Origin: Yoonia sp.
GTDB lineage: Bacteria > Pseudomonadota > Alphaproteobacteria > Rhodobacterales > Rhodobacteraceae
Assembly: GCF_017854565.1 (NCBI RefSeq)
Contig: NZ_JAFMHJ010000010.1
Span: 9,307-73,306 of the forward strand
Length of the DNA stretch: 64,000 nt
Reading direction: 5' to 3'
Shown here: in pieces, positions 4,591 through 19,402 of the stretch
Numbering within the stretch: the first letter of the stretch is position 1
Layout: each line of letters starts with the position of its first letter
Notes under the pieces: generated by a model
Seen by the model: the letters and a program-made list of their open reading frames with translations, nothing else
The model's database searches: none
Told to the model about the DNA's origin: nothing
Made by a program: the position numbers and the translations under genes

Positions 4591-4623
4591 AAAAAAGGGC
4601 AGCGCGCAAGTGCTGCCCTTTTT
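4591..4623. terminator. rho-independent terminator, A-tract/stem/T-tract so potentially bidirectional
   Basis: aaaaaa-GGGCAGC-gcgcaagt-GCTGCCC-ttttt: a perfect 7-bp GC stem, an 8-nt loop and a T5 run. Confidence 0.85.
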
Positions 4624-4709
4624 GCTGTGCCGATTGCGTCATGCCGCGATTGATCCTATTGATCGGTCGTGAAAACATACGCGCATGAACGATCAGGCAG
4701 GCAAGAACT

Positions 4710-5414
4710 ATGGGTGAAATCTGGGAGGGACTGATGGCTGGCTTGTGGCTGGTCGTGACCCTTGATCCCGATCTTGTCGAAATCACGCTGCGGTCGTTGC
4801 AGGTCACGCTGACCGCTGTGGTGATTGGGTCTGCGATTGCTTTGCCTTTTGGGGCCTGGCTGGCCATTCGCCGGTTTCGCCACCGGCGCGCGACGATTGC
4901 ACTGTTGAATGCGCTGATGGGGCTGCCGCCGGTCGTGGTGGGGCTGATTGTTTATCTTTTATTGTCGCGCTCGGGGCCGTTTGGCGTATTGGGGCTGCTG
5001 TTCACGCCCACGGCGATGATCATCGCGCAGGTAATTATCATCACACCGCTGATCGCGTCCATCGCGCACCAATCCATCCGCGATATCTGGTCCGAATATC
5101 ATGATCTGTTGATTTCGCTTTCAACCACCAAACGGCAGCGCATCGCGACCCTGATCTGGGACGGGCGGCGGGCACTGATGACTGCGTCGCTTGCCGGGTT
5201 CGGGCGTGCGATTGGCGAAGTGGGCGCGATTATGATCGTCGGCGGCAATATCGACCACGCGACCCGCGTCTTGACGACGGCCATCGCGCTTGAGACGGGC
5301 AAAGGTGACTTTGCGCTCGCGCTTGGTCTTGGTTTCGTGCTGATCGGGCTGGCGATTGCGGTGAACGTCGCAACCCATATGATCGGACGCACCGAAAGCG
5401 ACGGCAAATGGTAA
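4710..5414 (+). CDS. tupB: tungstate ABC transporter permease (TupB-type)
   Basis: 234-aa multi-TM ORF with an ABC permease EAA-like region (LAGFGRAIGEVGAIMIVGGN). Overall it resembles the TupB family. It sits in an overlapping operon with an ATPase and a TupA-like binding protein. Confidence 0.75.
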   Translation: MGEIWEGLMAGLWLVVTLDPDLVEITLRSLQVTLTAVVIGSAIALPFGAWLAIRRFRHRRATIALLNALMGLPPVVVGLIVYLLLSRSGPFGVLGLLFTPTAMIIAQVIIITPLIASIAHQSIRDIWSEYHDLLISLSTTKRQRIATLIWDGRRALMTASLAGFGRAIGEVGAIMIVGGNIDHATRVLTTAIALETGKGDFALALGLGFVLIGLAIAVNVATHMIGRTESDGKW

Positions 5415-6124
5415 CTTCGATCCTGCCCCTGAAAATGTCCGGTGCCGTGGTGAAACGGCGGGGGAAAACCCTGCTGGGTCCGGTTGACCTGACGGTGTCG
5501 CAAACCGGTTTTACGATTGTGATGGGCCCAAATGGCGCCGGTAAGACGACCCTTTTGCGCGCGCTGCATGGCTTGGAACGGCTTTCTGGTGGACAGGTGC
5601 AATGGCAAATTCCGCTGCGCGACACGCTACAGCGGCAAGCCTTTGTGTTTCAGACCCCGATCATGATGCGCCGCTCGGTGCGCGATAATCTGGCCTATCC
5701 GCTGATCCTGCATGGCACACCCAAGGCTGCTGCGTATGCGCTGGCCGCCGACTGGGCCGGGCGCATTGGTCTGGGCCGGGCGCTTGATCAGCAAGCCCCC
5801 CAACTGTCGGGCGGCGAAAAACAAAAGCTGGCGCTGGCACGCGCGCTGATGCGGTCACCCGATATTCTTTTTCTGGACGAACCCTGCGCCAATCTGGACG
5901 GCCGCGCCATCCGCGAGATCGAAGCGATCTTGAAATCCGCGCAGGCAGGTGGCACCCGTATCCTCATGGCGACCCATGACATCGGGCAGGCCAGACGTTT
6001 GGCGAGTGATGTCGTGTTTCTCATGCATGGAAAAATAATCGAAATGGCCGCCGCCGATGCATTTTTCGGCGCACCCAAAACCCCACAGGCCGCCGCTTTG
6101 TTAAATGGAGATATCGTAGAGTGA
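5408..6124 (+). CDS. tupC: ABC transporter ATP-binding protein (TupC-type)
   Basis: Walker A GPNGAGKTT, signature LSGGEKQK, Walker B ILFLDEP. Overlaps tupB by 7 nt. Confidence 0.8.
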   Translation: MVTSILPLKMSGAVVKRRGKTLLGPVDLTVSQTGFTIVMGPNGAGKTTLLRALHGLERLSGGQVQWQIPLRDTLQRQAFVFQTPIMMRRSVRDNLAYPLILHGTPKAAAYALAADWAGRIGLGRALDQQAPQLSGGEKQKLALARALMRSPDILFLDEPCANLDGRAIREIEAILKSAQAGGTRILMATHDIGQARRLASDVVFLMHGKIIEMAAADAFFGAPKTPQAAALLNGDIVE

Positions 6125-6918
6125 CCCGTATACTTGCTCTGGTTCTTGGGCTGACAGGCACTATCGCCTCTGCCGAAGACCTTAAACTTGCCGTGACCAC
6201 ATCGTTCCACAATTCAGGTCTGTCAGAAATTCTGCTGCCTGCCATTGCCGAAGACACCGGCATCACCGTCCAGTTGCTTGTCGTGGGCACCGGTCAGGCG
6301 ATCCGTCTGGGCGAGGCGGGGGATGTCGATGCGATCCTTGTCCACTCGCGTCCCGCAGAAGATGCATTTCTGGCCGACGGCTACGGCACGCATCGCCGCG
6401 AAATCATGTACAATGACTTTGTTTTCATCGGTCCGGTTGCTGACCCTGCGGCCATCGCCGATGCAGATACTGCCGCCGATGCGCTGGCGCGCATTGCCCA
6501 GACCGAAGCCGTTTTTGTCAGCCGTGGCGACGATAGCGGAACCCACAAGAAAGAACTGTCTTTGTGGGATGCCGCCGACGTGTCGCGCGGCGGTGACTGG
6601 TATCGGCCAGTGGGTGCCGGCATGGGCGCTGCGCTGAACACGGCTGCCGGTATGAACGCCTACATTCTGGCCGACCGCGCCAGCTGGCTGAACTTTGGCA
6701 ACAAGGCTGATCTGGGTCTGTTGTTTGCAGGCGATCCGGTGCTGTTTAACCAATACGCCTACATCCCGGTCAATCCCGAATTGCACGGCCACATCAAAGC
6801 CGATCTGGCGGTGAAACTGGAAGACTGGCTGACATCGCCCCGCGCGGCAGAGCTGATCAACAGCTACACGATCAACGGTGAAACGCTGTTCACCTTCAAC
6901 GCGCAGCCCGCATCCTAG
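6121..6918 (+). CDS. tupA: periplasmic tungstate-binding protein (TupA-type)
   Basis: GTG start overlaps the tupC stop (GTGA). Signal peptide ...GTIASA. VTTSFHNSGL...VVGTGQAIRLGEAGDVDAILVH...FVSRGDDSGTH matches my recollection of the TupA family. Confidence 0.75.
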   Translation: MTRILALVLGLTGTIASAEDLKLAVTTSFHNSGLSEILLPAIAEDTGITVQLLVVGTGQAIRLGEAGDVDAILVHSRPAEDAFLADGYGTHRREIMYNDFVFIGPVADPAAIADADTAADALARIAQTEAVFVSRGDDSGTHKKELSLWDAADVSRGGDWYRPVGAGMGAALNTAAGMNAYILADRASWLNFGNKADLGLLFAGDPVLFNQYAYIPVNPELHGHIKADLAVKLEDWLTSPRAAELINSYTINGETLFTFNAQPAS

Positions 6919-7457
6919 TGGTGGTGATGGCCATGATCATGCCCGTGTTCATGATCATGCGGTTCGTCTTCATCTAGCGAGCCGTGAATGGCAAACTGAT
7001 CGATCCCCGCTGATTGGGGCTCGATCGACCTGAACCCTTCCTTCACGCCGGCCTCGGTCAGTTCGCGTGATACCATCAGCAGGGTGTTCGGGTCCTGACC
7101 GTCACATAATGCGATCATCTGCGCGATTTCATCTGCCGCCACGCCCTGTGCGGCCGCGACCGATGGCGCGCCATAGTGGCTGACGAAATGGGCGGCCAGT
7201 GCGGCGGTCAGGGCGTCGATTTCGACCTGCTCGACCTTGGTGACAGCCACGACCGACACCCGTCCGAATGTCTCAAGGCCCAGCCAGCCGTTGCTGAATG
7301 CCTGCCGCGCCTTGCCAGCCAGATCGCCGTCCGACCAGTTCGAAAACTCGAACCCGCCGGATATGCACCATTCACCCGTCCGGGCGGGCGCATGAAAGAT
7401 GTTCATGTCGCTTTCGTCAAAATGGATCGCGCGGGCAAGGTATTGGGCTGTCATCAT
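6915..7457 (-). CDS. conserved hypothetical protein with a C-terminal His-rich tail (DUF6505-like)
   Basis: 180-aa ORF ending DEDEPHDHEHGHDHGHHHH. Its start overlaps the stop of the upstream gene (7454-7457). The family label is from memory. Confidence 0.65.
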   Translation of the reverse strand: MMTAQYLARAIHFDESDMNIFHAPARTGEWCISGGFEFSNWSDGDLAGKARQAFSNGWLGLETFGRVSVVAVTKVEQVEIDALTAALAAHFVSHYGAPSVAAAQGVAADEIAQMIALCDGQDPNTLLMVSRELTEAGVKEGFRSIEPQSAGIDQFAIHGSLDEDEPHDHEHGHDHGHHHH

Positions 7458-8125
7458 GTTTCCAACAAACTGGTCAGTGGGATAAGTGTGGTCGTTTCGC
7501 CGTCCCGGCGCAACATGCCAAAACGTTCGTCAAGGCCGACAAAGTCGCCTTCGCCAAGGCCGTGCATCAACCCCTGCAATTCCGAATGCAGCGGTTTGAC
7601 ACCGTCATCGTCCCAGCGGTTGACCCAGACCAGCATGTGACGCGCCCAGCTTTCCAACAGCAAGACGGGGTCCACATCCATGCAGCCTTCGGCGTAAAGC
7701 GCCGTTTCGTCGGGCGTGTCGCCGGGATCGTCGGACGCGGGCCAAAGCGGTAGTTCCAGACCGATGATCAGCCAATCGGGGATGTCGTCGGGGACCGTCC
7801 CCGATGCTTTGGCCTGCAACCGGCCGCAAGCGCCGCCGTTCAATCGGATGCCGCCGTTCCAATCCAGATGCACGGCGACTTCTGGCGGGGCGACGGACCC
7901 CAAGGCGTTCTGAAACCCGATGCCGCAGGCCGGCAGCATCGCCATTGCATCTGCCAACGGAACCTCGGGCGCAAAGACGATGGCGGCGCGCAGGTCATTC
8001 CCGCTGAGGTTATAAATCACCGTGCCCGCGTCGCAGCCTTCGGTGGCCATGGCAACAGCGACATCCATGGGATTGTCGACCGTTGCCATGCCCGAAAGAA
8101 GCGGCGGAAAGACCGGCGCTGTCAT
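7454..8125 (-). CDS. biotin/lipoate A/B protein ligase-fold family protein (BPL_LplA_LipB-like, catalytic role unknown)
   Basis: 223-aa ORF with its stop coupled to the next gene. PPLLSG...CDAGTVIYN...LRAAIVFAPE...GGIRLNGGACG resembles the short BPL/LplA-like family that neighbours this type of FDH cluster. Confidence 0.6.
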   Translation of the reverse strand: MTAPVFPPLLSGMATVDNPMDVAVAMATEGCDAGTVIYNLSGNDLRAAIVFAPEVPLADAMAMLPACGIGFQNALGSVAPPEVAVHLDWNGGIRLNGGACGRLQAKASGTVPDDIPDWLIIGLELPLWPASDDPGDTPDETALYAEGCMDVDPVLLLESWARHMLVWVNRWDDDGVKPLHSELQGLMHGLGEGDFVGLDERFGMLRRDGETTTLIPLTSLLET

Positions 8126-9189
8126 GCGTGACCTGCGGCGATCAAGGTGCGTGCGACCACGCGAAACGCCTCTGCCTGCGGGCTGTCGGGTTTGGATACG
8201 ACAATCGGCGCGCCCCCGTCGGCGGCCAGACGGATGTCCAGATGCAAGGGCAATTCAGCCAACAGGGGCACCCCCAGCTTTGCCGCCTCTGCCGCCACGC
8301 CGCCATGGCCAAAGGTGTGTTCCTCGTGGCCGCAGTTGGAGCAGATGTGCGTGCTCATGTTTTCGATCATGCCAATGATCGGGGTGCCCAGCTGGTTGAA
8401 CATATCAATGCCCTTGCGCGCGTCGATCAGGGCCACGTCCTGCGGCGTCGAGACGATCACGGCACCTGTCACGTCGAACTTTTGCGCCAGTGTCATCTGC
8501 ACATCGCCGGTGCCGGGGGGCAGGTCCACGATCAGCACGTCAAGCGCGCCCCATTGCACCTGATTCATCATCTGCTGCAACGCGCCCATCAACATCGGGC
8601 CGCGCCAGACAACGGCCTGATCATCGTTTTGCATCAGGCCGATCGACATCATCGTCACGCCGTGGTTGCGCATCGGCAGGATCGTCTTGCCATCGGGTGA
8701 CGCAGGACGCCCCGAAACACCCAGCATACGGGGCTGCGATGGCCCGTAGACATCGGCGTCCAGCAGGCCAACGCGGCGCCCTTCGGCGGCCAGCGCACAG
8801 GCCAGATTGGCCGAGACCGTGGATTTGCCCACGCCGCCCTTGCCCGAGGCAATCGCAAGGATGCGATCAATGCCGGGGATCTTCTGCGGGCCCTTGGGTT
8901 CGGATTTACGCTGCGGCTTCAGATCCGGCGGCGCGGCAGGCGTGGTGTGCGCGGTCATGATGGCCGACACGTTGCCGATGCCCGGCATCGCCCTGAGCGC
9001 CGCTTCGGCTGCGGCGCGCACGGGTTCCATTTGTTGGGCCAGTGCAGGGGCCACTTCAAAGACAAAGCGCACGTTGCCGTCATCGACATTCAAGGCCCGG
9101 ACCAAACCGGCAGCCATGATATCATCGCCCGAGGCGGGGTCTTCAATCGTTTTCAGGGTCGCAATGACCGCGTCGCGGGTGATGCTCAC
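8122..9189 (-). CDS. apbC: Mrp/NBP35/ApbC-type iron-sulfur cluster carrier ATPase
   Basis: N-terminal DUF59/MIP18-like domain, deviant Walker A SGKGGVGKST and the CSNCGHEE CxxC motif. 355 aa. Confidence 0.9.
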   Translation of the reverse strand: MSITRDAVIATLKTIEDPASGDDIMAAGLVRALNVDDGNVRFVFEVAPALAQQMEPVRAAAEAALRAMPGIGNVSAIMTAHTTPAAPPDLKPQRKSEPKGPQKIPGIDRILAIASGKGGVGKSTVSANLACALAAEGRRVGLLDADVYGPSQPRMLGVSGRPASPDGKTILPMRNHGVTMMSIGLMQNDDQAVVWRGPMLMGALQQMMNQVQWGALDVLIVDLPPGTGDVQMTLAQKFDVTGAVIVSTPQDVALIDARKGIDMFNQLGTPIIGMIENMSTHICSNCGHEEHTFGHGGVAAEAAKLGVPLLAELPLHLDIRLAADGGAPIVVSKPDSPQAEAFRVVARTLIAAGHA

Positions 9190-9381
9190 TTACGCGTCCT
9201 TCCCGCTGATTTTGCCAGTCACGACATGCTCCAGACCCAGTTCGGGAATGGACAGGACCATCTTGGCTTCAAATGTCTTGCCGGGCGCTGCGTTGCGCAT
9301 CGCCTCTTCAATCGCTTGCTGCGATGTGACGCCGACCTGCTTGAGAAACTTGCGCATGGACATGTTGAAATCTTCGCTCAT
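9190..9381 (-). CDS. small conserved hypothetical protein (63 aa, DUF6494-like)
   Basis: Its stop abuts the apbC start with no gap. Sequence MSEDFNMSMRKFLKQVGVTSQQAIEEAMRNA..., soluble and helical. Confidence 0.55.
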   Translation of the reverse strand: MSEDFNMSMRKFLKQVGVTSQQAIEEAMRNAAPGKTFEAKMVLSIPELGLEHVVTGKISGKDA

Positions 9382-9444
9382 TTTCGTCTCCTGTCTGTTG
9401 CGCGCGATTGACGCTGCGGGGTTCGTCCCGCTAGCGTGGTCACC

Positions 9445-10185
9445 ATGCGCATTTTCCTAATTCTTCTGTGGCTCATACCTATAAGCGCTGGCGCGCAAGA
9501 CAACAGCATTCGGCTGGCGATCCCTGATCCTTTGTTGGAAACCGGGTTTATGGACTACTTGCTGCCGCGTTTTTCGCTCAAATCCGCGATCCGCGTGGAC
9601 CGTGTGCCCGTTGGTGCGCCCGCCGATCTGGTCCTGACCCGCGAACCCGCCGGGCAAGTGGTGTTCATTGGCGCCGATGCGCAGTGGTATCTGGACACGC
9701 AGATCGACAGCCCGACCGCCATGCGGTTCGCCGATTGGCTGACATCTGATGCGGGGGGCCGCGCCATCACAGGCTTTCAGCCGCAGGGTGACACGATATT
9801 CCTGTTGCCGCAACCCGACGCACCTGTCGTGGTCCGGGTCCCGATCAACCCGGCGCTGGCGGCCAAAGGGGGCGATCTGTCGCTGGATCACTGTGGGCGC
9901 TGTCATGTGGTCAGCGATGCCAACCGGATGAAGGGTATCGGCTCGACCCCGTCTTTTGCGCTGATCCGCACATTTTCCGACTGGGACACCCGGTTTCAAA
10001 CCTTTTACGTGCTCAAGCCGCACCCCGCCTTCACCCAGATCACGGATGTGACGGACCCATTCGATCCCGCGCGCCCATCGCCCATCGTGCCCCTGCACAT
10101 CACGGCAGAGGACCTGGACGCAATCATCGCCTTTGTGGCGACGATTGCCCCCGCTGATCTGGGCGCACCTATGCAATCTCAGTGA
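9445..10185 (+). CDS. periplasmic protein with a single CxxCH heme-c motif
   Basis: ORF 9436..10185, ATG at 9445. Signal peptide MRIFLILLWLIPISAGA. CGRCH motif in the middle. The segment FADWLTSDAGGRAITGF..GDTIFLL echoes the TupA C-terminus LEDWLTSPRAAELINSY..GETLFTF. Confidence 0.6.
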   Translation: MRIFLILLWLIPISAGAQDNSIRLAIPDPLLETGFMDYLLPRFSLKSAIRVDRVPVGAPADLVLTREPAGQVVFIGADAQWYLDTQIDSPTAMRFADWLTSDAGGRAITGFQPQGDTIFLLPQPDAPVVVRVPINPALAAKGGDLSLDHCGRCHVVSDANRMKGIGSTPSFALIRTFSDWDTRFQTFYVLKPHPAFTQITDVTDPFDPARPSPIVPLHITAEDLDAIIAFVATIAPADLGAPMQSQ

Positions 10186-12146
10186 TCCTTGCGCTTTGAC
10201 AGGTAGTCATCGGTCGTGCGGACGCGCGGGCGCTCTGCCCCGGCGAAGGGATTGTTTTCCGAATGATACTGCGCCTGTATCCGACAATTGTCACACATCT
10301 GGATCATCCGGGCCGCTGCCGGATTGGCGAACATCGCGTGTTTCCCGGCCAGCTTTTCGGTGATCTTGTCGATCGTTGATTTGACACCGAACAGGTTGCC
10401 GCATTCGACGCAGGCAAACGGCTCTTCTTCGTGCAATACCACCTGGGCAAATGCGCCATCAGTCAGGTTCAACTGCGGCTTGAGGGTAATCGCATTCTCG
10501 GGGCAGATGTTGCTGCACAGACCGCACTGCAAACACGCATCTTCCTGAAACCGCAACTGCGGCTTGTCTTCGTTGTCCATCAACGCGCCCGATGGGCAAA
10601 GCGATACGCATGACAGACACAGGGTACAGGCATCGGTATCCACCAGAACCGCGCCATAGGGGGCGGTGTCGGGCAGGGGGATGATCGTGGCATCCGTCAG
10701 CGCCTTGGCTGCCGTCCGCGCCACTTGGCGTCGCGAACCCATGGGCAGGATCGGGCTTGCGACGGCGCGCGCCTCTGTGCCGTCAAACAAGGTGTCCGAC
10801 AAGGCGTCGGGGTCTGCAATATCCAGCAGCCGGATCGCCTTGCCGCTGATCGCCAGTCCCAGCGCCAGTTCGCGCGACAACGTATCGCGGTCCGACTTGG
10901 GCGACAGCAAAATATCTACGGTCGCAAATCCAGCCCCCAGACCTGCCAACATCTCGGCATGGCCGAAACCAGCCAGCGCCGTCACTTCCAGAGGGATCAC
11001 ATTCGCGGGCAGACCGCGCCCGAAACGTGCAGCCAGCTGGATCATTTCGATCCCGTGGCTGTCATCATGCACCAGCAACCGCGGCTGGGTCCCGCCGGCC
11101 TTGCGAAACGTGCTGGCCAGCGTTTGGATGCGGCGGAACAGGCTGTCGACTGGCGGGGCATCAAACGTAATAGCCCCCGAAGGACAAAGCGCCGAACACG
11201 CGCCGCACCCGGCACAGATCATCGGATCAATCGCCACATGTTCGCCCGCCGACGTGATCGCACCCGTCGGGCAGGCATTCAGGCAATTCGAACAGGCCGG
11301 TTGTTCGGCACGCGAATGCGCACAAAGCGATGGTTCAAGCCGCACATACAGCGGCTTTTCAAAGGTGCCGACCATCTGTGCCGCCTCAAACACGGCATCG
11401 GCAACCGATGGTGCATGCTTGGGATCGGCGCGCAGATAGCCGTCACGCTTTTCATGGGCTGAAAACAGCGGCGTATCGCCTGACAGGTCCAGTATGATGT
11501 CGCACTGCGACGTGGCGCCATCCTGCGGCGCGGAAAACCGGGGGTGGCCCCGCCCGCCCGGCTCGAGGTTCTGGACGGCATCCAGCCGCAGATCGAACGC
11601 GCCCAGTGATCCGCTCGCCCGTGTCACCCGGCCTTTGATCACATCGAAGCGGTCCGTTGCATCAGGATCGCTGGCATCGGTCAAAAGCAAGGTCACGCTC
11701 AGCACCTCACCCAGCTTTGCGGCCGCGTCCAGCGCGACCTGACCCGCGCCGATAATCAGGCAAACCCCATCTGACGTTACGTCACGTACCTTGGGTTCGA
11801 TCTGCGGCAGCAACGCTTCCGCCGCGAGGGCCGCCATCTTTGGACCATTTGTCGCAGGGTCATCAGACCAACCCGCCCGGTCGCGCAGATCTACAAAAAG
11901 TGGTAACTCCGCGTTAACTTCTTGGGCGATTTCTTCAAAAATGCTCTGCTCTTGACCGCAGGCGATGATTACTCCGCCATTTGTGATCGCTTTTGTCGCG
12001 CTCTCGATTTCTTTTGTGCACAAAGCGGTGTGTAAACGCGAACACTTCAGGCCGGTTGCACCCTCAATCGCGGCTGTGTCTATTGTTTGGCTTCCCAAAC
12101 AATCACATATAATCAATTGTTTAACTGTATTTGGCTGTTGGGTCAT
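10179..12146 (-). CDS. large cytoplasmic polyferredoxin (4Fe-4S dicluster domains, Rossmann-like GxGxxA segment, C-terminal CxxC...CxxC)
   Basis: ORF 10179..12251. ATG 12146 (MTQQPNTVKQL) is preceded by GGGAGAGA. Motifs: CAGCGACSALCP, CTLCLSCVSLCP, CLQCGLCSNICP, the variant C..CSNCLNACP, LIIGAGQVALDAAAKLG, and CVECG...CDNC. Confidence 0.8.
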   Translation of the reverse strand: MTQQPNTVKQLIICDCLGSQTIDTAAIEGATGLKCSRLHTALCTKEIESATKAITNGGVIIACGQEQSIFEEIAQEVNAELPLFVDLRDRAGWSDDPATNGPKMAALAAEALLPQIEPKVRDVTSDGVCLIIGAGQVALDAAAKLGEVLSVTLLLTDASDPDATDRFDVIKGRVTRASGSLGAFDLRLDAVQNLEPGGRGHPRFSAPQDGATSQCDIILDLSGDTPLFSAHEKRDGYLRADPKHAPSVADAVFEAAQMVGTFEKPLYVRLEPSLCAHSRAEQPACSNCLNACPTGAITSAGEHVAIDPMICAGCGACSALCPSGAITFDAPPVDSLFRRIQTLASTFRKAGGTQPRLLVHDDSHGIEMIQLAARFGRGLPANVIPLEVTALAGFGHAEMLAGLGAGFATVDILLSPKSDRDTLSRELALGLAISGKAIRLLDIADPDALSDTLFDGTEARAVASPILPMGSRRQVARTAAKALTDATIIPLPDTAPYGAVLVDTDACTLCLSCVSLCPSGALMDNEDKPQLRFQEDACLQCGLCSNICPENAITLKPQLNLTDGAFAQVVLHEEEPFACVECGNLFGVKSTIDKITEKLAGKHAMFANPAAARMIQMCDNCRIQAQYHSENNPFAGAERPRVRTTDDYLSKRKDH

Positions 12147-12338
12147 TGGCTCTCTCCCGCGGTTCTGCGCTTCCGCAGTCGGCAGAGTGTAGCCATGTAT
12201 TGCCGGGAACGTAAACCGGAAACGGTGTCGTGATATGCCGCATCGCAGCATCGCATTTTAGCAAAAAAGTGCTTTCCGAACAGTCCGATTTGGTCCAGCA
12301 TAGAGGTTAACGACGTCCGAGAAAGCCCGAGGAAAATT

Positions 12339-12902
12339 GTGATCCACAATCCGCATCAATACCAGACCATGCCCTTGGGCATTGTCGTGCGACGCGCGCC
12401 CGGTGCGACGCGTTGGGCCAAGTGGGCATGGAAAGTGGTTTCGGTTCTTCCCGGTGCTGCGGGTGCGGATTGGAAACCGCTGCGCGAAGACGGCGATGTG
12501 GTTGAATATCATGCCGCAACCCGCCCGCTGGAATTGCACGGTGCCGAATGCGAAGCCTATATGGCCGGTTTGGCCGATAAAACACCCGCCGTTTACGTCG
12601 TAATGCGCCGCAGCGATGATGCTCAACGCCCGTTCGATGTGCTGTTGGTGACCGCTTCACCCTACGAGGCGCAGGATTACTGCGACAACGGCGAAGACAT
12701 CGTCGAAAAAGTCGCGATGCCGGATGGTATCATCGGCTGGGTCCGCGACTTTACCGACCGCTTTTTCGAAGAAGAAGTGTTCATAAAGCGGCGCCGCGAC
12801 AAGCATCGGACGGACCGGGTCGAGGATGGCGTTGGCGATGCGCGCATCCAGCAGTTGACGGATGTCTACCGTGCGCCGGGCCGCAAGGATCCAGCCGCAT
12901 GA
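12339..12902 (+). CDS. DUF3305 domain protein
   Basis: 187-aa ORF divergent from the polyferredoxin gene. LGIVVRRAPGATRWAKWAWKVVSVLPG...VYVVMRR matches my recollection of DUF3305. The start is uncertain (GTG 12339 or ATG 12369). Confidence 0.65.
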   Translation: MIHNPHQYQTMPLGIVVRRAPGATRWAKWAWKVVSVLPGAAGADWKPLREDGDVVEYHAATRPLELHGAECEAYMAGLADKTPAVYVVMRRSDDAQRPFDVLLVTASPYEAQDYCDNGEDIVEKVAMPDGIIGWVRDFTDRFFEEEVFIKRRRDKHRTDRVEDGVGDARIQQLTDVYRAPGRKDPAA

Positions 12903-13498
12903 CCAAACCCGCAAGTGATTTCTGGTCGCGCCGCAAGGCAAAGGTCGCAGACGAGGCAGAGGCCGAGGTGGCGCTGCAGCCGGACGTTGCACCCGAGGTG
13001 TCGACAGAAGACCTGTCTGACGAAGAAATTCTGGCTGTGCTGGAACTGCCTGACCCCGATACGCTGGTGCTGGGCGACGACATCAAGGGCTTTATGTCCA
13101 AGGCGGTCCCCGAACATCTGCGCCGCCGGGCGCTGCGCAAGCTATGGCGTTTGAACCCCGTTTTGGCCTGTCTGGACGGCTTGAACGACTATGACGGCGA
13201 TTTCACCGATGCGGCAACCGTGTTTCCCGACATGAAGACCGCATATCAGGTCGGCAAGGGCATGTTGGCCCATGTGCAGGAAATGGCACGTCAAGCAGAG
13301 GTTTTGCTAGCTTCGAACACAGATGACGTTGTAGAACAAATAGGGGAGCAAAATTCAGATGAGAATCAAGAGGTTGATACCGTGATCGCGGAGGCGCCCA
13401 AAGCGCCCCAAGCCGTTGCATCACAGGGTCATGCCGCGCCGCGCCGTCGGATGCGCATGTCATTTGAACAAGACGCCCCGTCGGAGATGACATCATGA
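12899..13498 (+). CDS. DUF3306 domain protein
   Basis: ATGA overlap with the upstream gene. N-terminus FWSRRKAKV, acidic linker, and LRRRALRKLWRLNPVLACLDGLNDYDGDFTD are typical of DUF3306. Confidence 0.65.
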   Translation: MTKPASDFWSRRKAKVADEAEAEVALQPDVAPEVSTEDLSDEEILAVLELPDPDTLVLGDDIKGFMSKAVPEHLRRRALRKLWRLNPVLACLDGLNDYDGDFTDAATVFPDMKTAYQVGKGMLAHVQEMARQAEVLLASNTDDVVEQIGEQNSDENQEVDTVIAEAPKAPQAVASQGHAAPRRRMRMSFEQDAPSEMTS

Positions 13499-14106
13499 GC
13501 GCGATGGCGGATATAGCCGAAACCAGCACCGAAGACCGTATGCGTGCTGATCTATATAATTATCTTGGGCTAATGCTGTCCGCTCCGCCCGATGAGATGT
13601 TGCTCGCGCAGACTGCTGATCTTCAGGGAGACGACAGTGTGCTGGGCAAATCAATCACGCAACTTGCGCGCGTGGCCAAAGTGTCAAAGCCCAAGGCAGT
13701 GCGAAGCGAGTTTAACGCGCTGTTCATCGGGCTTGGCCGGGGCGAGCTTTTGCCATTTGCCAGCTATTACCTCACCGGCTTTCTAAACGAAAAGCCGCTC
13801 GCCGCATTGCGTGGCGATATGATGGCGCGCGGCATTGCGCGTGCGCCCAATGTTTTCGAACCAGAAGACAACATCGCCTCCTTGCTGGAGATGATGGGTG
13901 GGCTGATCGTCGGGCGTTTCGCCGGGCCGGCGGCGGATCTGCAAAGTCAGAAGGTGTTTTTTAACAAGCATGTCGGGTCTTGGGCAGGTCACTTTTTCAG
14001 TGACCTTGAAGCTGCGAAAAATTCGGTTCTCTATGCCTCGGTTGGGGCAGTGGGGCGAAATTTGATGGATATCGAACGCGAAGCGTTTCGAATGATAGCG
14101 GATTAA
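13495..14106 (+). CDS. TorD/DmsD-family redox-enzyme maturation chaperone
   Basis: ATGA overlap with the upstream gene. RADLYNYLGLMLSAPP...EFNALFIGLGRGELLPFASYYLTGF is the TorD-family core. Confidence 0.8.
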   Translation: MSAMADIAETSTEDRMRADLYNYLGLMLSAPPDEMLLAQTADLQGDDSVLGKSITQLARVAKVSKPKAVRSEFNALFIGLGRGELLPFASYYLTGFLNEKPLAALRGDMMARGIARAPNVFEPEDNIASLLEMMGGLIVGRFAGPAADLQSQKVFFNKHVGSWAGHFFSDLEAAKNSVLYASVGAVGRNLMDIEREAFRMIAD

Positions 14107-14158
14107 TCCGTGGATAACGGCGGGACCCCCGCCAAAAGAAGAGAAGGGAAACGGTCAC

Positions 14159-14344
14159 ATGGCCAATGAAAAAGAAGTCGGCGCAAGCCGTCGTAATTTT
14201 CTCAAACTCGGAATTGCAGCACCAGCACTCGTTGCCGCAGCGGCGTCGGGAACAGCGGCAGCGGCACAGCCGGTCGATCTGACATCCGGAAAAATGCAAG
14301 ACACCGATCATACCCGCGCCTACTTGGCCAGTGCCCGGTTCTAA
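14159..14344 (+). CDS. 61-aa twin-arginine signal peptide protein (formate dehydrogenase region Tat target)
   Basis: SRRNFLKLGIAAPALVAAAASGTAAAA is a Tat signal. The gene lies directly upstream of fdhA. Confidence 0.7.
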   Translation: MANEKEVGASRRNFLKLGIAAPALVAAAASGTAAAAQPVDLTSGKMQDTDHTRAYLASARF

Positions 14345-14419
14345 GGATTTTCGGGTCTTGGCCCGAAGTAACGCAACCCAGCGAGACCGGGTCAGCCGGT
14401 GCCAGCAAGGGAGAGAAGA

Positions 14420-17296
14420 ATGTTAAAGAAAAAGACCAACGGGGTCGCCCGACGTGCCAGCATCGACACGCAAGCGACCAAAGGATCTGTCGACCGGCGT
14501 ACGTTCCTGCGCGGGTCCGGCCTGACAATCGGCGGTTTGGCCGCGATTGCAGCGACGGGTGGCAATGTAACCGCCGCGCACGCACAGCAGGCCGTCAATA
14601 ACGCCGTTCAGACGATCAAATCCATTTGTACGCATTGTTCAGTGGGCTGTACCGTGATTGCCGAAGTCGACAATGGCGTCTGGACAGGTCAGGAACCCGG
14701 CTGGGACAGCCCGTTCAATCTGGGTGCGCATTGCGCCAAAGGTGCGGCCGTGCGCGAACATGCCCATGGTGAGCGTCGCCTGAAGTACCCAATGAAAAAA
14801 GAGAACGGCGAATGGGTTCGTATCAGCTGGGAAACCGCGATCGACGAAATCGGCGATAAGATGTTGCAGATCCGCGAAGAAAGCGGTCCTGACTCGGTCT
14901 ACTGGCTTGGTTCCGCCAAGCACAACAATGAACAGGCCTATCTGTTCCGCAAATTTGCGGCCTATTGGGGCACCAACAACGTCGATCACCAGGCGCGCAT
15001 CTGCCACTCGACCACGGTTGCCGGTGTGGCGAACACATGGGGCTACGGCGCCATGACCAACAGCTACAATGACATGCATAACTCCAAGGCGATCTTTCTG
15101 ATCGGCGGCAACCCGGCAGAAGCACACCCGGTGTCGCTGCTGCACATGCTCAAAGCCAAAGAGCAGAACAACGCGCCATTGATCGTGTGCGATCCGCGTT
15201 TCACACGGACTGCGGCCCATGCTGACGAATATGTACGCTTCCGGCCCGGCTCGGACGTTGCATTGGTCTGGGGTATCCTGTGGCACATCTTTGAAAACGG
15301 ATGGGAAGACAAAGAGTTCATCCGCACCCGCGTTTGGGGCATGGATCAGATCCAGGACGAAGTGAAAAAGTGGAACCCGGAGGAAGTCGAGCGCGTCACC
15401 GGTGCCCCCGGTGAACAGCTGCGCCGCGTGGCCTTTACCTTGGCAAACAACCGTCCCGGCACCGTGATCTGGTGCATGGGTGGCACGCAGCACACCAACG
15501 GTAACAACAACACCCGCGCTTACTGCATCCTTCAGCTTGCTCTTGGCAACATGGGTACATCCGGCGGCGGCACGAACATTTTCCGCGGTCACGACAACGT
15601 GCAGGGCGCGACGGACCTTGGCGTTCTGGCCGATACGCTGCCCGGCTACTACGGTCTGGCACCGGGATCATGGGCGCACTGGGCACGTGTCTGGAACGAG
15701 GATCTGGATTGGCTCAAGGGTCGGTTCTCGGATGCGTCTTATGGCGACACGTCGATGATGAACCTCAACGGTATCACGGTCGGTCGCTGGATCGACGGTG
15801 TGCTGGAAGACAAGGAAAACATCGACCAGCCCGATAATACCCGTGCGATGGTGCTGTGGGGCCACGCGCCCAACTCGCAGACCCGTCAGAAGGAAATGAA
15901 GACGGCGATGGAAAAACTCGACCTGTTGGTCGTTGTGGACCCTTATCCAACCGTATCTGCCGTGCTGCATGATCGTACCGATGGCGTGTATCTGCTGCCC
16001 GCTTGTACCCAGTTCGAAACCCGTGGTTCTGTCACCGCTTCAAACCGTTCGTTGCAGTGGCGTGACAAAGTGGTCGAGCCACTCTTCGAGAGCCTTCCAG
16101 ACCACACGATCATGGCGAAATTCGCCACCAAGTTCGGGTTTGCGGATAAAATCTTCCGCAACATCGCTGTGGATGAAGCCGGTGAGCCAAACATCGAAGA
16201 CCTCACCCGCGAATTCAACAGCGGTATGTGGACGATCGGTTATACTGGCCAAAGCCCTGAGCGCTTGAAAATGCACATGGCCAACCAGCACACCTTCGAC
16301 CGCACGACGCTGCGTGCGATCGGTGGCCCGGCCGATGGTGATTTCTACGGTCTGCCATGGCCTTGCTGGGGTACCGCCGAGATGAACCACCCCGGTTCGG
16401 CGAACCTCTATGATATCTCCATTCCTGTCGCCGAAGGTGGCATGGGCTTCCGTGCCCGCTACGGGGTAGAGCGGGATGGCGACAATCTGCTGGCCGAAGG
16501 CGTCTACCCGGTTGGGTCGGAAATTCAGGACGGTTACCCTGAATTCACGATGCAGATGCTGATGGATCTGGGCTGGGACGGTGATCTGACCGCAGACGAG
16601 CGTGCTGCGATTGATGCCGTTGCCGGGGCAAGCACCAACTGGAAAACCGACCTTTCGGGCGGTATCCAGCGGGTTGCGATCAAACATGGCTGTGCCCCTT
16701 ATGGCAACGCCAAGGCCCGCGCCGTGGTCTGGACCTTCCCTGATCCGGTACCGCTGCACCGCGAACCGCTGTACAGCAACCGCCGCGATCTGGTCGCTGA
16801 TTACCCGACCTACGAAGACCGCAAGTTCTGGCGCGTTCCAACCCTTTACAAGTCAATCCAGCAGAATGATTTCTCGCAAGAGTATCCGATCATCCTGACC
16901 TCTGGCCGTCTTGTGGAATACGAGGGTGGCGGCGACGAAAGCCGGTCCAACCCATGGTTGGCCGAGCTTCAACAGGACATGTTCGTGGAAATCAACACCC
17001 GCGATGCCAACAACCTTGGTGTCCGTGACGGCGCACAAGTCTGGGTCGAAGGCCCGGAGGGTGGCAAAGTCAAGGTGATGGCAATGGTCACCGAACGGGT
17101 GGGCGTGGGCGTTGCCTTCATGCCATTCCACTTTGGTGGTCACCTCGAAGGCAAGGATCTGCGCGACAAGTATCCCGACGGTGCAGACCCGTTTGTCTTG
17201 GGCGAAAGCAGCAACACCGCACAAACATATGGCTACGATTCAGTGACCCAGATGCAAGAGACCAAAGCGACCCTCTGCAAAATCTGGACAGCGTAA
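14420..17296 (+). CDS. fdhA: formate dehydrogenase catalytic subunit (Mo/W-bisPGD), Tat-exported, Cys variant
   Basis: ORF 14399..17296. ATG 14420 follows AGGGAGAGAA. Tat motif DRRTFLRGSG. The 4Fe-4S motif is CTHCSVGC..C. The active-site region HQARICHSTT uses TGC (15002-15004) where Sec enzymes carry TGA. Confidence 0.92.
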   Translation: MLKKKTNGVARRASIDTQATKGSVDRRTFLRGSGLTIGGLAAIAATGGNVTAAHAQQAVNNAVQTIKSICTHCSVGCTVIAEVDNGVWTGQEPGWDSPFNLGAHCAKGAAVREHAHGERRLKYPMKKENGEWVRISWETAIDEIGDKMLQIREESGPDSVYWLGSAKHNNEQAYLFRKFAAYWGTNNVDHQARICHSTTVAGVANTWGYGAMTNSYNDMHNSKAIFLIGGNPAEAHPVSLLHMLKAKEQNNAPLIVCDPRFTRTAAHADEYVRFRPGSDVALVWGILWHIFENGWEDKEFIRTRVWGMDQIQDEVKKWNPEEVERVTGAPGEQLRRVAFTLANNRPGTVIWCMGGTQHTNGNNNTRAYCILQLALGNMGTSGGGTNIFRGHDNVQGATDLGVLADTLPGYYGLAPGSWAHWARVWNEDLDWLKGRFSDASYGDTSMMNLNGITVGRWIDGVLEDKENIDQPDNTRAMVLWGHAPNSQTRQKEMKTAMEKLDLLVVVDPYPTVSAVLHDRTDGVYLLPACTQFETRGSVTASNRSLQWRDKVVEPLFESLPDHTIMAKFATKFGFADKIFRNIAVDEAGEPNIEDLTREFNSGMWTIGYTGQSPERLKMHMANQHTFDRTTLRAIGGPADGDFYGLPWPCWGTAEMNHPGSANLYDISIPVAEGGMGFRARYGVERDGDNLLAEGVYPVGSEIQDGYPEFTMQMLMDLGWDGDLTADERAAIDAVAGASTNWKTDLSGGIQRVAIKHGCAPYGNAKARAVVWTFPDPVPLHREPLYSNRRDLVADYPTYEDRKFWRVPTLYKSIQQNDFSQEYPIILTSGRLVEYEGGGDESRSNPWLAELQQDMFVEINTRDANNLGVRDGAQVWVEGPEGGKVKVMAMVTERVGVGVAFMPFHFGGHLEGKDLRDKYPDGADPFVLGESSNTAQTYGYDSVTQMQETKATLCKIWTA

Positions 17297-17309
17297 GGAG
17301 AACAAGAAG

Positions 17310-17903
17310 ATGGCAAGAGCAAAGTTTCTCGTCGATGCCGAACGCTGCATTGAATGCAACGCATGCGTCACGGCTTGTAAGAACGAACACGAGGTCCCTT
17401 GGGGCATCAACCGCCGCAAGGTGGTAACGATCAATGATGGTAAGCCGGGCGAGCGTTCAATCTCGGTCGCTTGCATGCATTGTTCCGATGCGCCCTGCAT
17501 GGCCGTGTGTCCGGTCGACTGTTTCTACCAGAACGAAGAAGGCGTCGTTCTGCATTCAAAAGACCTGTGCATCGGGTGCGGTTACTGTTTCTATGCCTGC
17601 CCATTCGGCGCGCCGCAGTATCCGCAGGCTGGTAACTTCGGTTCGCGCGGCAAGATGGACAAATGTACCTTCTGCGCAGGCGGCCCCGAAGAGAACAACA
17701 GTCAGGCCGAATTCCAAAAGTATGGCCGCAACCGGATCGCAGAAGGCAAGTTGCCAATCTGTGCCGAAATGTGCGCCACAAAGGCCCTGCTTGCCGGTGA
17801 CGGCGACGTGGTGTCGGGCATCTACCGTGAACGCGTTGTCGCACGCGGTTTCGGGTCCGGCGCATGGGGCTGGGGCACGGCCTACGACCAAAAAGGCGGC
17901 TGA
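17310..17903 (+). CDS. fdhB: formate dehydrogenase iron-sulfur subunit (4x 4Fe-4S ferredoxin-type)
   Basis: RBS AAGGAGA. Motifs CIECNACVTAC, CMHCSDAPCMAVCP, CIGCGYCFYACP, CTFC...CAEMC. Confidence 0.9.
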   Translation: MARAKFLVDAERCIECNACVTACKNEHEVPWGINRRKVVTINDGKPGERSISVACMHCSDAPCMAVCPVDCFYQNEEGVVLHSKDLCIGCGYCFYACPFGAPQYPQAGNFGSRGKMDKCTFCAGGPEENNSQAEFQKYGRNRIAEGKLPICAEMCATKALLAGDGDVVSGIYRERVVARGFGSGAWGWGTAYDQKGG

Positions 17904-18008
17904 ACCCGTCTTTGACCGTAAAAGGTGCGGGGGTGCTCCATCAGGATCATCCCCGTCGCTACGATTACATTCCTGGGGGTGACCCCCAACCGACCAAGGA
18001 GCCTGCAG

Positions 18009-19214
18009 ATGACGCGCGCCTTCTTCGCTATTGTTGTTACGTGTTTTTTGTCTGTTTTGGGTTCCGTATCCCTAGCTCAAGAGACATCGACGACTGACCG
18101 CTCTGCCACCGGTGGTGCGCAGACCCTCGAAGATATCATGGCACGCCAGCAAGGTTTGCCAATTGATGACAGTTTTCGCAGCGACGCGATTGGAAATCCT
18201 GAACAGGCTGCACCGCTGACTGACCAGCTTGGCAGTCTCGGGGGCTTGTCCGAACCGGAGGTGTGGCGCGCGATGCGCTACAACAAGGCCGATATTTCCG
18301 GGCAGGCGCGCGGTCCTGCCGCGAACGTCTTGATCCAAGACAGCGGCATGTGGTGGCTGTTATTCCGCGATGGGCCTCTGGCGACCTATGGATCATACCT
18401 GTTGGGCGGCACGATCGCGCTGCTTGCCCTGTTTTTCCTGATCCGTGGCCGGGTCCGCATCGACGGCGAAAAGACAGGCCGCACGATCACCCGCTTCAAG
18501 GCATTTGAACGCTTCGGCCATTGGCTGATGGCGGGCTCCTTCGTCGTCCTTGGGCTGACCGGGCTGATCACGCTGTTCGGGCGCAAGATCATGATCCCCT
18601 ACTTTGGCCATGACAGCTTTGCGACGATGGCGATTGCGTCCAAATGGATACACAACAACATCTCATGGGCCTTTATGATCGGACTGGTGATGGTGTTCTT
18701 CATGTGGGTCCTTGAAAATATCCCCAACCGTCTTGACCTGAAATGGATCGCGGTCGGTGGCGGGCTGTTCAAAAAGGGCGTCCACCCCCCCGCCAAGAAA
18801 TTCAACGCCGGTCAAAAGGTGATCTTCTGGTCGGTCATCGTGTTGGGAACCTCGATTTCCGTCTCCGGGCTTTCGCTGCTGTTCCCGTTTGAACTGCCCA
18901 TGTTCGCGAAAACATTTGTCCTGCTCAACAGCACTGGCCTGCCGGAAATGCTGGGCTTTGGCACCCTGCCAACCCAGTTGACACCGCACGCCGAAATGCA
19001 GTTCGCGCAGCTATGGCATGCGATCATTTCCTTTGTGCTGATGGCGATTATCCTCGCCCATATTTACATCGGTTCGATCGGCATGGAAGGCGCGTTCGAT
19101 GCGATGGGATCGGGCGAAGTCGAAGAACAATGGGCCCGCGAACACCACAGCCTCTGGGTCGATGAGGTCAAGGAAAAACAATCCGCCTCTGCCCAAACGA
19201 CCCCTGCTGAATAG
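18009..19214 (+). CDS. fdhC: formate dehydrogenase cytochrome b (gamma) subunit with a long N-terminal periplasmic extension
   Basis: ORF 17925..19214. ATG 18009 follows AAGGAG. Signal-like MTRAFFAIVVTCFLSVLGSVSLA, then multiple TM helices with conserved His residues (FERFGHWLMA, HAEMQFAQLWHAII, AHIYIG). Confidence 0.85.
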   Translation: MTRAFFAIVVTCFLSVLGSVSLAQETSTTDRSATGGAQTLEDIMARQQGLPIDDSFRSDAIGNPEQAAPLTDQLGSLGGLSEPEVWRAMRYNKADISGQARGPAANVLIQDSGMWWLLFRDGPLATYGSYLLGGTIALLALFFLIRGRVRIDGEKTGRTITRFKAFERFGHWLMAGSFVVLGLTGLITLFGRKIMIPYFGHDSFATMAIASKWIHNNISWAFMIGLVMVFFMWVLENIPNRLDLKWIAVGGGLFKKGVHPPAKKFNAGQKVIFWSVIVLGTSISVSGLSLLFPFELPMFAKTFVLLNSTGLPEMLGFGTLPTQLTPHAEMQFAQLWHAIISFVLMAIILAHIYIGSIGMEGAFDAMGSGEVEEQWAREHHSLWVDEVKEKQSASAQTTPAE

Positions 19215-19226
19215 GAGCGACAGATC

Positions 19227-19355
19227 ATGAAAACGATGTTCGCAGCGTTTGCCATTTCTGCATTGATCTCGGTCGGTGCCTACTATGGCTTGCACGCAGC
19301 AGGCTTTGGCGCGGCCGAGCATACGGTCAGCGTTTCAGTCCGACTTGACGATTGA
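19227..19355 (+). CDS. unlisted 42-aa single-TM mini-protein downstream of fdhC
   Basis: Below the ORF-track size cut-off. AGGAG at 19213-19217 lies 9 nt before ATG 19227. Sequence MKTMFAAFAISALISVGAYYGLHAAGFGAAEHTVSVSVRLDD, stop TGA 19353-19355. Confidence 0.45.
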   Translation: MKTMFAAFAISALISVGAYYGLHAAGFGAAEHTVSVSVRLDD

Positions 19356-19374
19356 TCGGCGCAGATAGACGACG

Positions 19375-19402
19375 CTGCCGCCCCGATTGATCCGGGCGGC
19401 AG
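19375..19402 (+). terminator. 9-bp GC hairpin at the end of the fdh operon, no T-tract
   Basis: CTGCCGCCC-cgattgatcc-GGGCGGCAG starts 20 nt after the mini-ORF stop. Confidence 0.4.

Follow-up and report, generated by a model that had tools for sequence, protein, structure and literature searches.

The BirA-like gene at positions 7454 to 8125 of the window, the whole 64,000-nucleotide stretch of Yoonia sp. DNA analysed here, encodes a protein of 223 amino acids (aa) that has the fold of a biotin protein ligase (BPL) and lies beside a formate dehydrogenase cluster, as it does in every true member of its family that was examined. To judge from family alignments, the GRGRxGR loop, the catalytic lysine and the Ser-Thr biotin contacts of BirA have been lost throughout that family. 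The protein is probably a non-ligase pseudoenzyme that acts as a non-catalytic helper in the cytoplasmic assembly of an exported, FDH3-type formate dehydrogenase.

7454 to 8125, minus strand: BirA-like pseudo-ligase gene (PF16917 plus DUF4444, 223 aa), the subject of this study.

The open reading frame was confirmed, and the biotin/lipoate-ligase fold that a first-pass annotation had read from the letters was borne out. In Pfam the protein matches PF16917 at 249.3 bits (cut-off 27) and PF14563/DUF4444 at 40.3 bits (cut-off 31.6), and residues 5-221 match the PDB entry 3BFM at 59% identity (E 1e-83). An AlphaFold2 model, with a predicted local distance difference test score (pLDDT) of 97.2, returned 3bfm in Foldseek at a template modelling score (TM) of 0.94, followed by BirA-type ligases at TM of approximately 0.7 and 12-17% identity; neither LplA nor LipB was among the top Foldseek rows, all of which after 3bfm were BirA-type ligases, and there was no match of the protein to PF21948 (LplA/LipB) at E up to 1. 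The structural-genomics entry 3BFM (TM1040_0394 of Silicibacter sp. TM1040) is described as a 'biotin protein ligase-like protein of unknown function' and belongs to the same family over its whole length; compared with it, the window protein has a somewhat shorter linker ahead of the C-terminal domain, and there is no other difference of substance. No paper on 3BFM was found in the literature searched. The window protein is an ordinary representative of this known but uncharacterised family.

For the comparison of catalytic residues, 49 diverse family members were chosen from 633 clusters at 50% identity, and the resulting profile was compared by hhalign with the BirA of the same genome (L003:1399-2199). 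The two align with 98.5% probability and, because the alignment extends through the C-terminal domain, DUF4444 can be read as a diverged BPL_C domain. The genome's own BirA carries the sequences ARGRRGR, LKWPND and VDSTM. A GRGRxGR-like biotin/ATP-binding loop was found in none of 271 family proteins; the ARGRRGR of BirA lies just upstream of the hhalign-aligned region, where the family has few residues. The catalytic lysine of the KWPND motif aligns with D88 of the window protein, and across 233 full-length members the same column holds D in 69, E in 56, R in 31, G in 19, A in 18 and K in 5. The Ser-Thr of the N-terminal DSTN-type motif of BirA contacts biotin. The corresponding place in the window protein, which reads VDNPM, is not covered by the hhalign alignment and was matched by eye; among the 233 members D is present in 181 and P in 186. 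While the group I BirA-type ligases (the structures from M. tuberculosis, P. horikoshii and A. aeolicus, and the genome's own BirA) have in common with the window family the fold of the catalytic domain and a small C-terminal domain, in the family the loop is deleted, the lysine is replaced (by Asp in the window protein) and the Ser-Thr contacts are substituted.

The genome, which is 97% complete, does not need this protein as a ligase. A canonical BirA, encoded in the usual nuoN-birA-coaX setting, and one LipB/LplA (a single PF21948 gene) are present away from the locus studied here. The genome's nine biotinyl/lipoyl domains are all at least 44 kb from the BPL-like gene. The lack of a nearby acceptor had been noted at the outset and stands: the only Biotin_lipoyl domain on the contig within the window is at 52194-52391, and the only in-gene [AV]MKM site of the window is the EAMKME at 52287-52298, about 44 kb away. 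The first-pass annotation had supposed that the fold may have been recruited for a purpose other than ligation, linked to the maturation of a molybdenum or tungsten enzyme, or may be a non-catalytic scaffold, and had proposed a comparison with BirA, holding that intact residues and the lack of a tie to formate dehydrogenase would speak against recruitment. The comparison shows the loop, the lysine and the Ser-Thr contacts to be lost, the tie to formate dehydrogenase is present, and the supposition is supported. Its further idea of adenylate or pterin chemistry found no support. The adenylation machinery is missing and we therefore favour a scaffold or accessory reading over adenylate chemistry.

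The gene is the third of an operon of four, all on the minus strand.

9190 to 9381, minus strand: gene for a 63-aa DUF6494 mini-protein (PF20104, 99.3 bits), the first of the four operon genes.
8122 to 9189, minus strand: gene for an ApbC/Mrp iron-sulphur (Fe-S) carrier paralogue of 355 aa (PF10609, 330 bits, plus FeS_assembly_P).
6915 to 7457, minus strand: gene for a DUF6505 protein of 180 aa with a His-rich tail (PF20115, 258.7 bits).

Co-translation of three of these genes had been proposed from their overlaps, and those overlaps were read at both ends of the BPL-like gene. Here apbC ends in GCATGA, the ATG of the BPL-like gene (8125-8123) shares four nucleotides (nt) with the apbC TGA (8124-8122), and the BPL-like TGA (7456-7454) overlaps the ATG of the DUF6505 gene (7457-7455), again as ATGA. 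The proposal was incomplete in its membership, as the DUF6494 gene abuts apbC upstream, giving the order DUF6494, apbC, BPL-like, DUF6505. The window's ApbC scores 343.5 bits against the NCBIfam ApbC model, slightly below the cut-off of 348, and is one of three full-length ApbC/Mrp paralogues in the genome (contigs C15, C17 and C53; 326-331 bits). The paralogue on C53 lies approximately 1.8 kb from the genome's only LipB/LplA gene.

The arrangement is highly conserved. We gathered 80 roseobacter loci in a search with a 12-sequence alignment, which returned roseobacter loci only, and 14 distant loci (26-43% identity) from a profile search of a 401-genome sample of the phylum. In the roseobacters DUF6505 lies downstream of the BPL-like gene in 79 of the 80 loci and apbC upstream in 79, the DUF6494 gene is found in 67, and polyferredoxin, DUF3305, TorD and FdhA are found in every locus whose contig extends that far. 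The spacing from apbC to the BPL-like gene is -4 in 80 of 82 loci; DUF6505 follows the BPL-like gene at -4 nt in 57 loci and at no more than 10 nt in 91 of 92. The recurrence of such short spacings points to a coupling beyond chance. All 14 distant loci, which come from several families of Alphaproteobacteria and from a single family of a different class, carry polyferredoxin, the BPL-like gene, DUF6505, DUF3305, DUF3306, TorD and FdhABC, and often DUF6352 as well; in one (L127) the cluster is a single operon with 4-nt overlaps. Every genome of the 401-genome sample that has the BPL-like gene also has DUF3305 (22/22), and 21 of these have DUF6505, the exception (G395) having the BPL-like gene, DUF6352 and DUF6494. 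The BPL-like family is always found within a formate dehydrogenase cluster whereas BirA is found in the nuoN-birA-coaX setting.

Profile scores in this sample were bimodal, full-length matches scoring at least 148 bits and BirA cross-matches about 100 bits or less. Several matches were set aside: the 155-bit match of G024 proved from its nuoN-birA-coaX setting to be a true BirA, those of G353, G148 and G152 (approximately 100 bits) are BirA, and that of G383, which is counted within the sample, is BirA-type.

Clustering divides the family into 633 groups at 50% identity and into 2450 at 90%, and there are near-invariant residues at P7, P8, A23, P53, W89, N96, W118, T141, E146 and H163. Positions that line the pocket in BirA are still conserved (A48, W89, G101 and W118). 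Among roseobacter orthologues the median ratio of nonsynonymous to synonymous substitution (dN/dS) is 0.24 for the BPL-like gene, 0.24 for DUF3305, 0.16 for TorD and 0.035 for FdhB. The BPL-like gene is under purifying selection and is not decaying.

The formate dehydrogenase cluster occupies the adjoining part of the window.

4710 to 6918, plus strand: genes for a TupBCA-like tungstate ABC transporter, convergent with the DUF6505 gene.
9436 to 10185, plus strand: gene for a periplasmic single-CxxCH protein with a signal-peptide-like N-terminus, a CGRCH motif and a weak Cytochrom_C match.
10179 to 12251, minus strand: gene for a cytoplasmic polyferredoxin of 690 aa with multiple 4Fe-4S dicluster domains.
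12339 to 12902, plus strand: gene for a DUF3305 protein (PF11749, 137 bits).
12899 to 13498, plus strand: gene for a DUF3306 protein (PF11748, 67 bits).
13495 to 14106, plus strand: gene for a TorD/NarJ-family maturation chaperone (PF02613, 95.8 bits).
14159 to 14344, plus strand: gene for an FdhX-like mini-protein of 61 aa with a weak TAT_signal match (twin-arginine translocation, Tat).
14399 to 17296, plus strand: gene for the FdhA catalytic subunit of 965 aa, with molybdopterin domains and no in-frame stop.
17310 to 17903, plus strand: gene for the FDH3-type Fe-S subunit FdhB (NCBIfam NF038355, FDH3 beta, 341.6 bits; cut-off 240).
17925 to 19214, plus strand: gene for the cytochrome b membrane subunit FdhC (TIGR01583, 137 bits, above cut-off).

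The operon that runs from DUF3305 through DUF3306, TorD and the Tat mini-protein to FdhABC is divergent from the polyferredoxin gene, and the CxxCH gene, on the opposite strand, separates the polyferredoxin gene from the apbC operon. The CxxCH gene is kept at the same spot in 66 of the 80 roseobacter loci and is absent from the distant clusters; the Tat mini-protein is conserved in 69 of the 80. The polyferredoxin (about 655-690 aa) is conserved next to the cluster in every lineage, whether or not the BPL-like gene is there. FdhA matches the FdhA of PDB entry 9vap (chain A) almost over its full length at 1413 bits, and FdhC is unusually long (429 aa), its cytochrome b domain beginning near residue 190. 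A further match of the DUF3305 protein is to the NCBIfam model for a fusion of MobA with a DUF3305 domain, which ties the cluster to work on the bis(molybdopterin guanine dinucleotide) (bis-MGD) cofactor. The transporter genes have the TupA and TupB models as their best matches, though below cut-off, and adjoin the cluster in 20 of the 80 roseobacter loci and in the loci of family f61, described below. In the window's genome fdhD is located elsewhere, and FdhE was not found in the 97%-complete assembly.

Contigs 99-100% identical to the window were present in two metatranscriptome runs from different studies. Long RNA contigs cover the fdh operon well (window 12500-19400), and in one of the runs contigs at 6834-7462 and 7444-7773 cover DUF6505 and the 3' half of the BPL-like gene, a weak indication that the operon is transcribed in nature. 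RNA contigs of this kind cannot rank expression, and low cover over 8058-8551 and the tup genes does not by itself amount to silence. The tup genes (window 4600-6575) were almost uncovered in the RNA runs; a DNA run covered everything evenly.

These observations suggest a role in maturation. The BPL-like protein is a paralogue of BirA-type biotin protein ligases whose catalytic function has degenerated: the fold of the catalytic domain and a small C-terminal domain are kept, and the elements for binding biotin and ATP and for forming the acyl-adenylate are gone. Its synthesis would keep a set ratio to that of the DUF6505 protein and, among roseobacters, to that of a dedicated ApbC. The protein would act in the cytoplasm, before the Tat export of the FDH3-type periplasmic tungsten/molybdenum formate dehydrogenase, most likely as a protein-binding module, perhaps through the surfaces with which BirA grips its acceptor. 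The module would then belong to a set of proteins that load the Fe-S clusters and the tungsten/molybdenum bis-MGD cofactor. We favour a non-catalytic assembly helper because the surrounding genes are of the maturation type (the TorD family, the extra ApbC, the MobA-linked DUF3305, and FdhD within the cluster in some lineages) and because FdhD is not replaced. The BPL-like protein as a stand-in for FdhD was ruled out: FdhD is found inside clusters with and without the BPL-like gene, and elsewhere in the window's own genome.

Several observations weigh against a role in maturation. Of the 45 genomes of the sample that have DUF3305, 23 are without a full-length BPL-like gene, two of these having a short form of it. 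The clusters that we fetched from other classes consist of DUF3305, DUF3306, polyferredoxin, TorD and FdhABC, often with apbC, and have neither the BPL-like gene nor DUF6505; such beta- and gamma-like clusters imply that the BPL-like protein is not generally required for the enzyme. The gene is a lineage-specific add-on. Its linkage to the cluster cannot separate a role in maturation from that of a working or regulatory subunit, and the conserved pocket-lining glycines, with two near-invariant tryptophans, could mean a ligand site and not a pure scaffold. No natural fusion backs a physical complex, the three candidates being artefacts. The RNA support comes from contigs and is weak, and the literature searched (under the DUF names, 3BFM, TM1040_0394 and the Pfam name) yielded no experiment on any member of the family.

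The DUF6505 protein is the putative partner in this scheme. Its gene had been singled out for a histidine-rich tail; the gene stands where it was placed, and the tail is not a feature of the family, being sporadic among orthologues, most of which end in HGSLDE. Invariant residues of the family are D14, D17, K49, G96-A97-P98, E110, R131 and E140. The model of the protein (pLDDT 87.7) gave no Foldseek match to solved folds at E 0.001 or better, and its best VIA match (Z 3.7) covers a helical hairpin only and is no proof of a new fold. The model matches no acceptor-type fold, and a biotinyl/lipoyl-type acceptor was rejected for DUF6505. In the model K49 is predicted to start the helix H48-56 and not to sit at the tip of a beta-hairpin, as the lysine does in biotinyl/lipoyl domains. 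Candidate fusions were also rejected. Two proteins that join PF16917 to DUF6505 (P0277 and P0278) are frameshift read-throughs of the 4-nt overlap in which Arg-rich, out-of-frame text replaces DUF4444, and one that joins a carboxyltransferase to DUF6505 (P0279) looks like an assembly chimera, the switch lying at a shared VGK on a single 2.5-kb contig.

It is conceivable that the BPL-like protein is still an enzyme or a ligand binder, its remodelled BirA pocket holding or transferring a nucleotide-bearing or carboxylate ligand; MGD or a pterin intermediate and some other acyl group are candidate ligands, and Lys49 of DUF6505 is a possible target. The conserved pocket-lining positions, the family-specific invariants N96, T141 and E146, the invariant lysine of the always-adjacent DUF6505 and the occurrence of DUF3305 fused to MobA, which puts cofactor chemistry close by, all fit such a function. 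However, the loop and the lysine with which BirA binds ATP and biotin and forms the adenylate are absent family-wide, the predicted position of K49 is not that of an acceptor lysine and the fold of DUF6505 is not that of an acceptor, and we consider this explanation unlikely. A related idea, which we rate as improbable, is that the BPL-like and DUF6505 proteins form a pseudo-ligase/pseudo-acceptor pair derived from the BirA-acceptor complex, in which the remodelled ligase pocket or the interface of the pair would bind either the apo catalytic subunit or an intermediate of the tungsten/molybdenum cofactor that bears a nucleotide. If it were true, a biotin-ligase fold would have been turned into a cofactor-delivery chaperone for an enzyme of CO2 and formate.

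The protein could instead be a standing cytoplasmic subunit or regulator in an electron-transfer or sensing module that is centred on the polyferredoxin and linked to the membrane cytochrome b subunit. Linkage alone does not tell such a part from one in maturation, no neighbour is as constant as the polyferredoxin gene, which lies next to the BPL-like gene or is divergent from it, and the extra length of FdhC, ahead of its cytochrome b domain, is in keeping with it. Yet the rest of the set is of the maturation type, the polyferredoxin cluster works without the BPL-like gene in many lineages, and a Pfam scan of the BPL-like protein found no redox-cofactor motif or DNA-binding domain; we regard a subunit or regulator as a doubtful alternative. 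That the protein is an ordinary biotin or lipoate ligase, placed here by coincidence and serving acceptors encoded elsewhere, would agree with the public annotation of its relatives and with the need of nine biotinyl/lipoyl domains for ligases, but it is very improbable and effectively excluded by the loss of every catalytic hallmark tested, the canonical BirA and LipB/LplA already in the genome and a linkage to formate dehydrogenase that persists across lineages at identities as low as 26%. The loss of catalytic motifs is all that a decaying, functionless relic of a duplicated birA would explain, and this, the least credible explanation, is effectively excluded by the size of the family, its own invariant residues, the dN/dS value, the conserved translational coupling, the confident compact model and the crystallised homologue.

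Variants of the locus were seen in other genomes. Two genomes of one genus have the short form, a PF16917-only protein of 179-180 aa (L141:9699-10238 and L142:9693-10235, both plus strand) that is without the C-terminal domain, W89 and the PDW motif; its gene immediately precedes DUF3305 in a second formate dehydrogenase cluster. DUF6505 is missing from both genomes, a hint from a single lineage that the C-terminal domain and DUF6505 go together. The sole exception to the close spacing of the BPL-like gene and DUF6505 is at L123, a distant alphaproteobacterial cluster, where a gene for an OprO/P-type anion-selective porin (L123:10626-11912, plus strand; PF07396, 168 bits) lies between them within the accessory operon of the formate dehydrogenase; an oxyanion, for example tungstate or formate, might enter through this porin. 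In non-roseobacter Alphaproteobacteria a gene for DUF6352 (about 335 aa) sits after the DUF6505 or the BPL-like gene, e.g. at L127:10955-11962 (plus strand), L136:8564-9595 (minus strand) and L123:11940-13631 (plus strand); DUF6352 was not found in the window's genome. Just past the polyferredoxin gene of L127, in one large alphaproteobacterial genome, is a gene for a bacterial WD40 beta-propeller protein of 429 aa (L127:5908-7197, plus strand).

An orphan DUF6505 gene occurs in G024 (L143:9733-10218, minus strand), by a GGDEF diguanylate cyclase gene and 2.5 kb from that of a formate-tetrahydrofolate ligase. It is distant from that genome's own DUF3305-FdhABC cluster, whose fetched stretch (L149) has no BPL-like gene, and the only high-scoring match to the BPL-like profile in G024, with 6 of 52 candidates scored, is the BirA. 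Three loci of family f61 (L132, L133 and L134), which belongs to the same phylum and another class, have a complete roseobacter-style cluster of tupBCA, fdhD, DUF6505, the BPL-like gene, apbC, polyferredoxin, DUF3305, DUF3306, TorD and FdhABC. Their ApbC and FdhA are respectively 70% and 80% identical to those of the window, which suggests that the whole island was transferred between classes.

Among known systems, the partner enzyme of the window is of the type of FdhT-FdhX-FdhA1B1C1 of Shewanella oneidensis (So_4507-4511), a tungsten-dependent, oxygen-tolerant periplasmic formate dehydrogenase (PMC13066108). The 9vap structure, which window FdhA matches so well, is probably this enzyme, to judge from the matching molecule name. 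The window has a TorD-type chaperone and a Tat mini-protein upstream of fdhA, the mini-protein in the position of FdhX (So_4508; PMC13066108), and tungstate transporter genes adjoin its cluster. Unlike the window, the sampled gamma-like clusters, whose genomes may be those of Shewanella, have polyferredoxin, DUF3306 and sometimes FdhD and carry neither the BPL-like gene nor DUF6505. In one earlier paper DUF3305 and DUF3306 are found upstream of dmsD-fdhGHI and are called 'putative membrane proteins' (PMC4464133). The TorD/DmsD/NarJ maturation sets have a logic in common with the window cluster, with genes for cytoplasmic helpers beside that of a Tat-exported bis-MGD enzyme. We know of no described maturation system that uses a biotin-ligase fold.

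The public label 'biotin-(acetyl-CoA carboxylase) ligase' that many members of the family bear is very probably wrong. Periplasmic formate dehydrogenases of the FDH3/Shewanella type are oxygen-tolerant tungsten enzymes that reduce CO2, and two papers of 2026 show maturation to be the limiting step in their heterologous production (PMC13714276 and PMC13066108). In Alphaproteobacteria the putative helper set of these enzymes includes a biotin-ligase fold that is without the residues of a ligase. If the BPL-like protein does aid the loading of the cofactor or the Fe-S clusters, this would be a new use of the fold and would provide a practical part for expression hosts.

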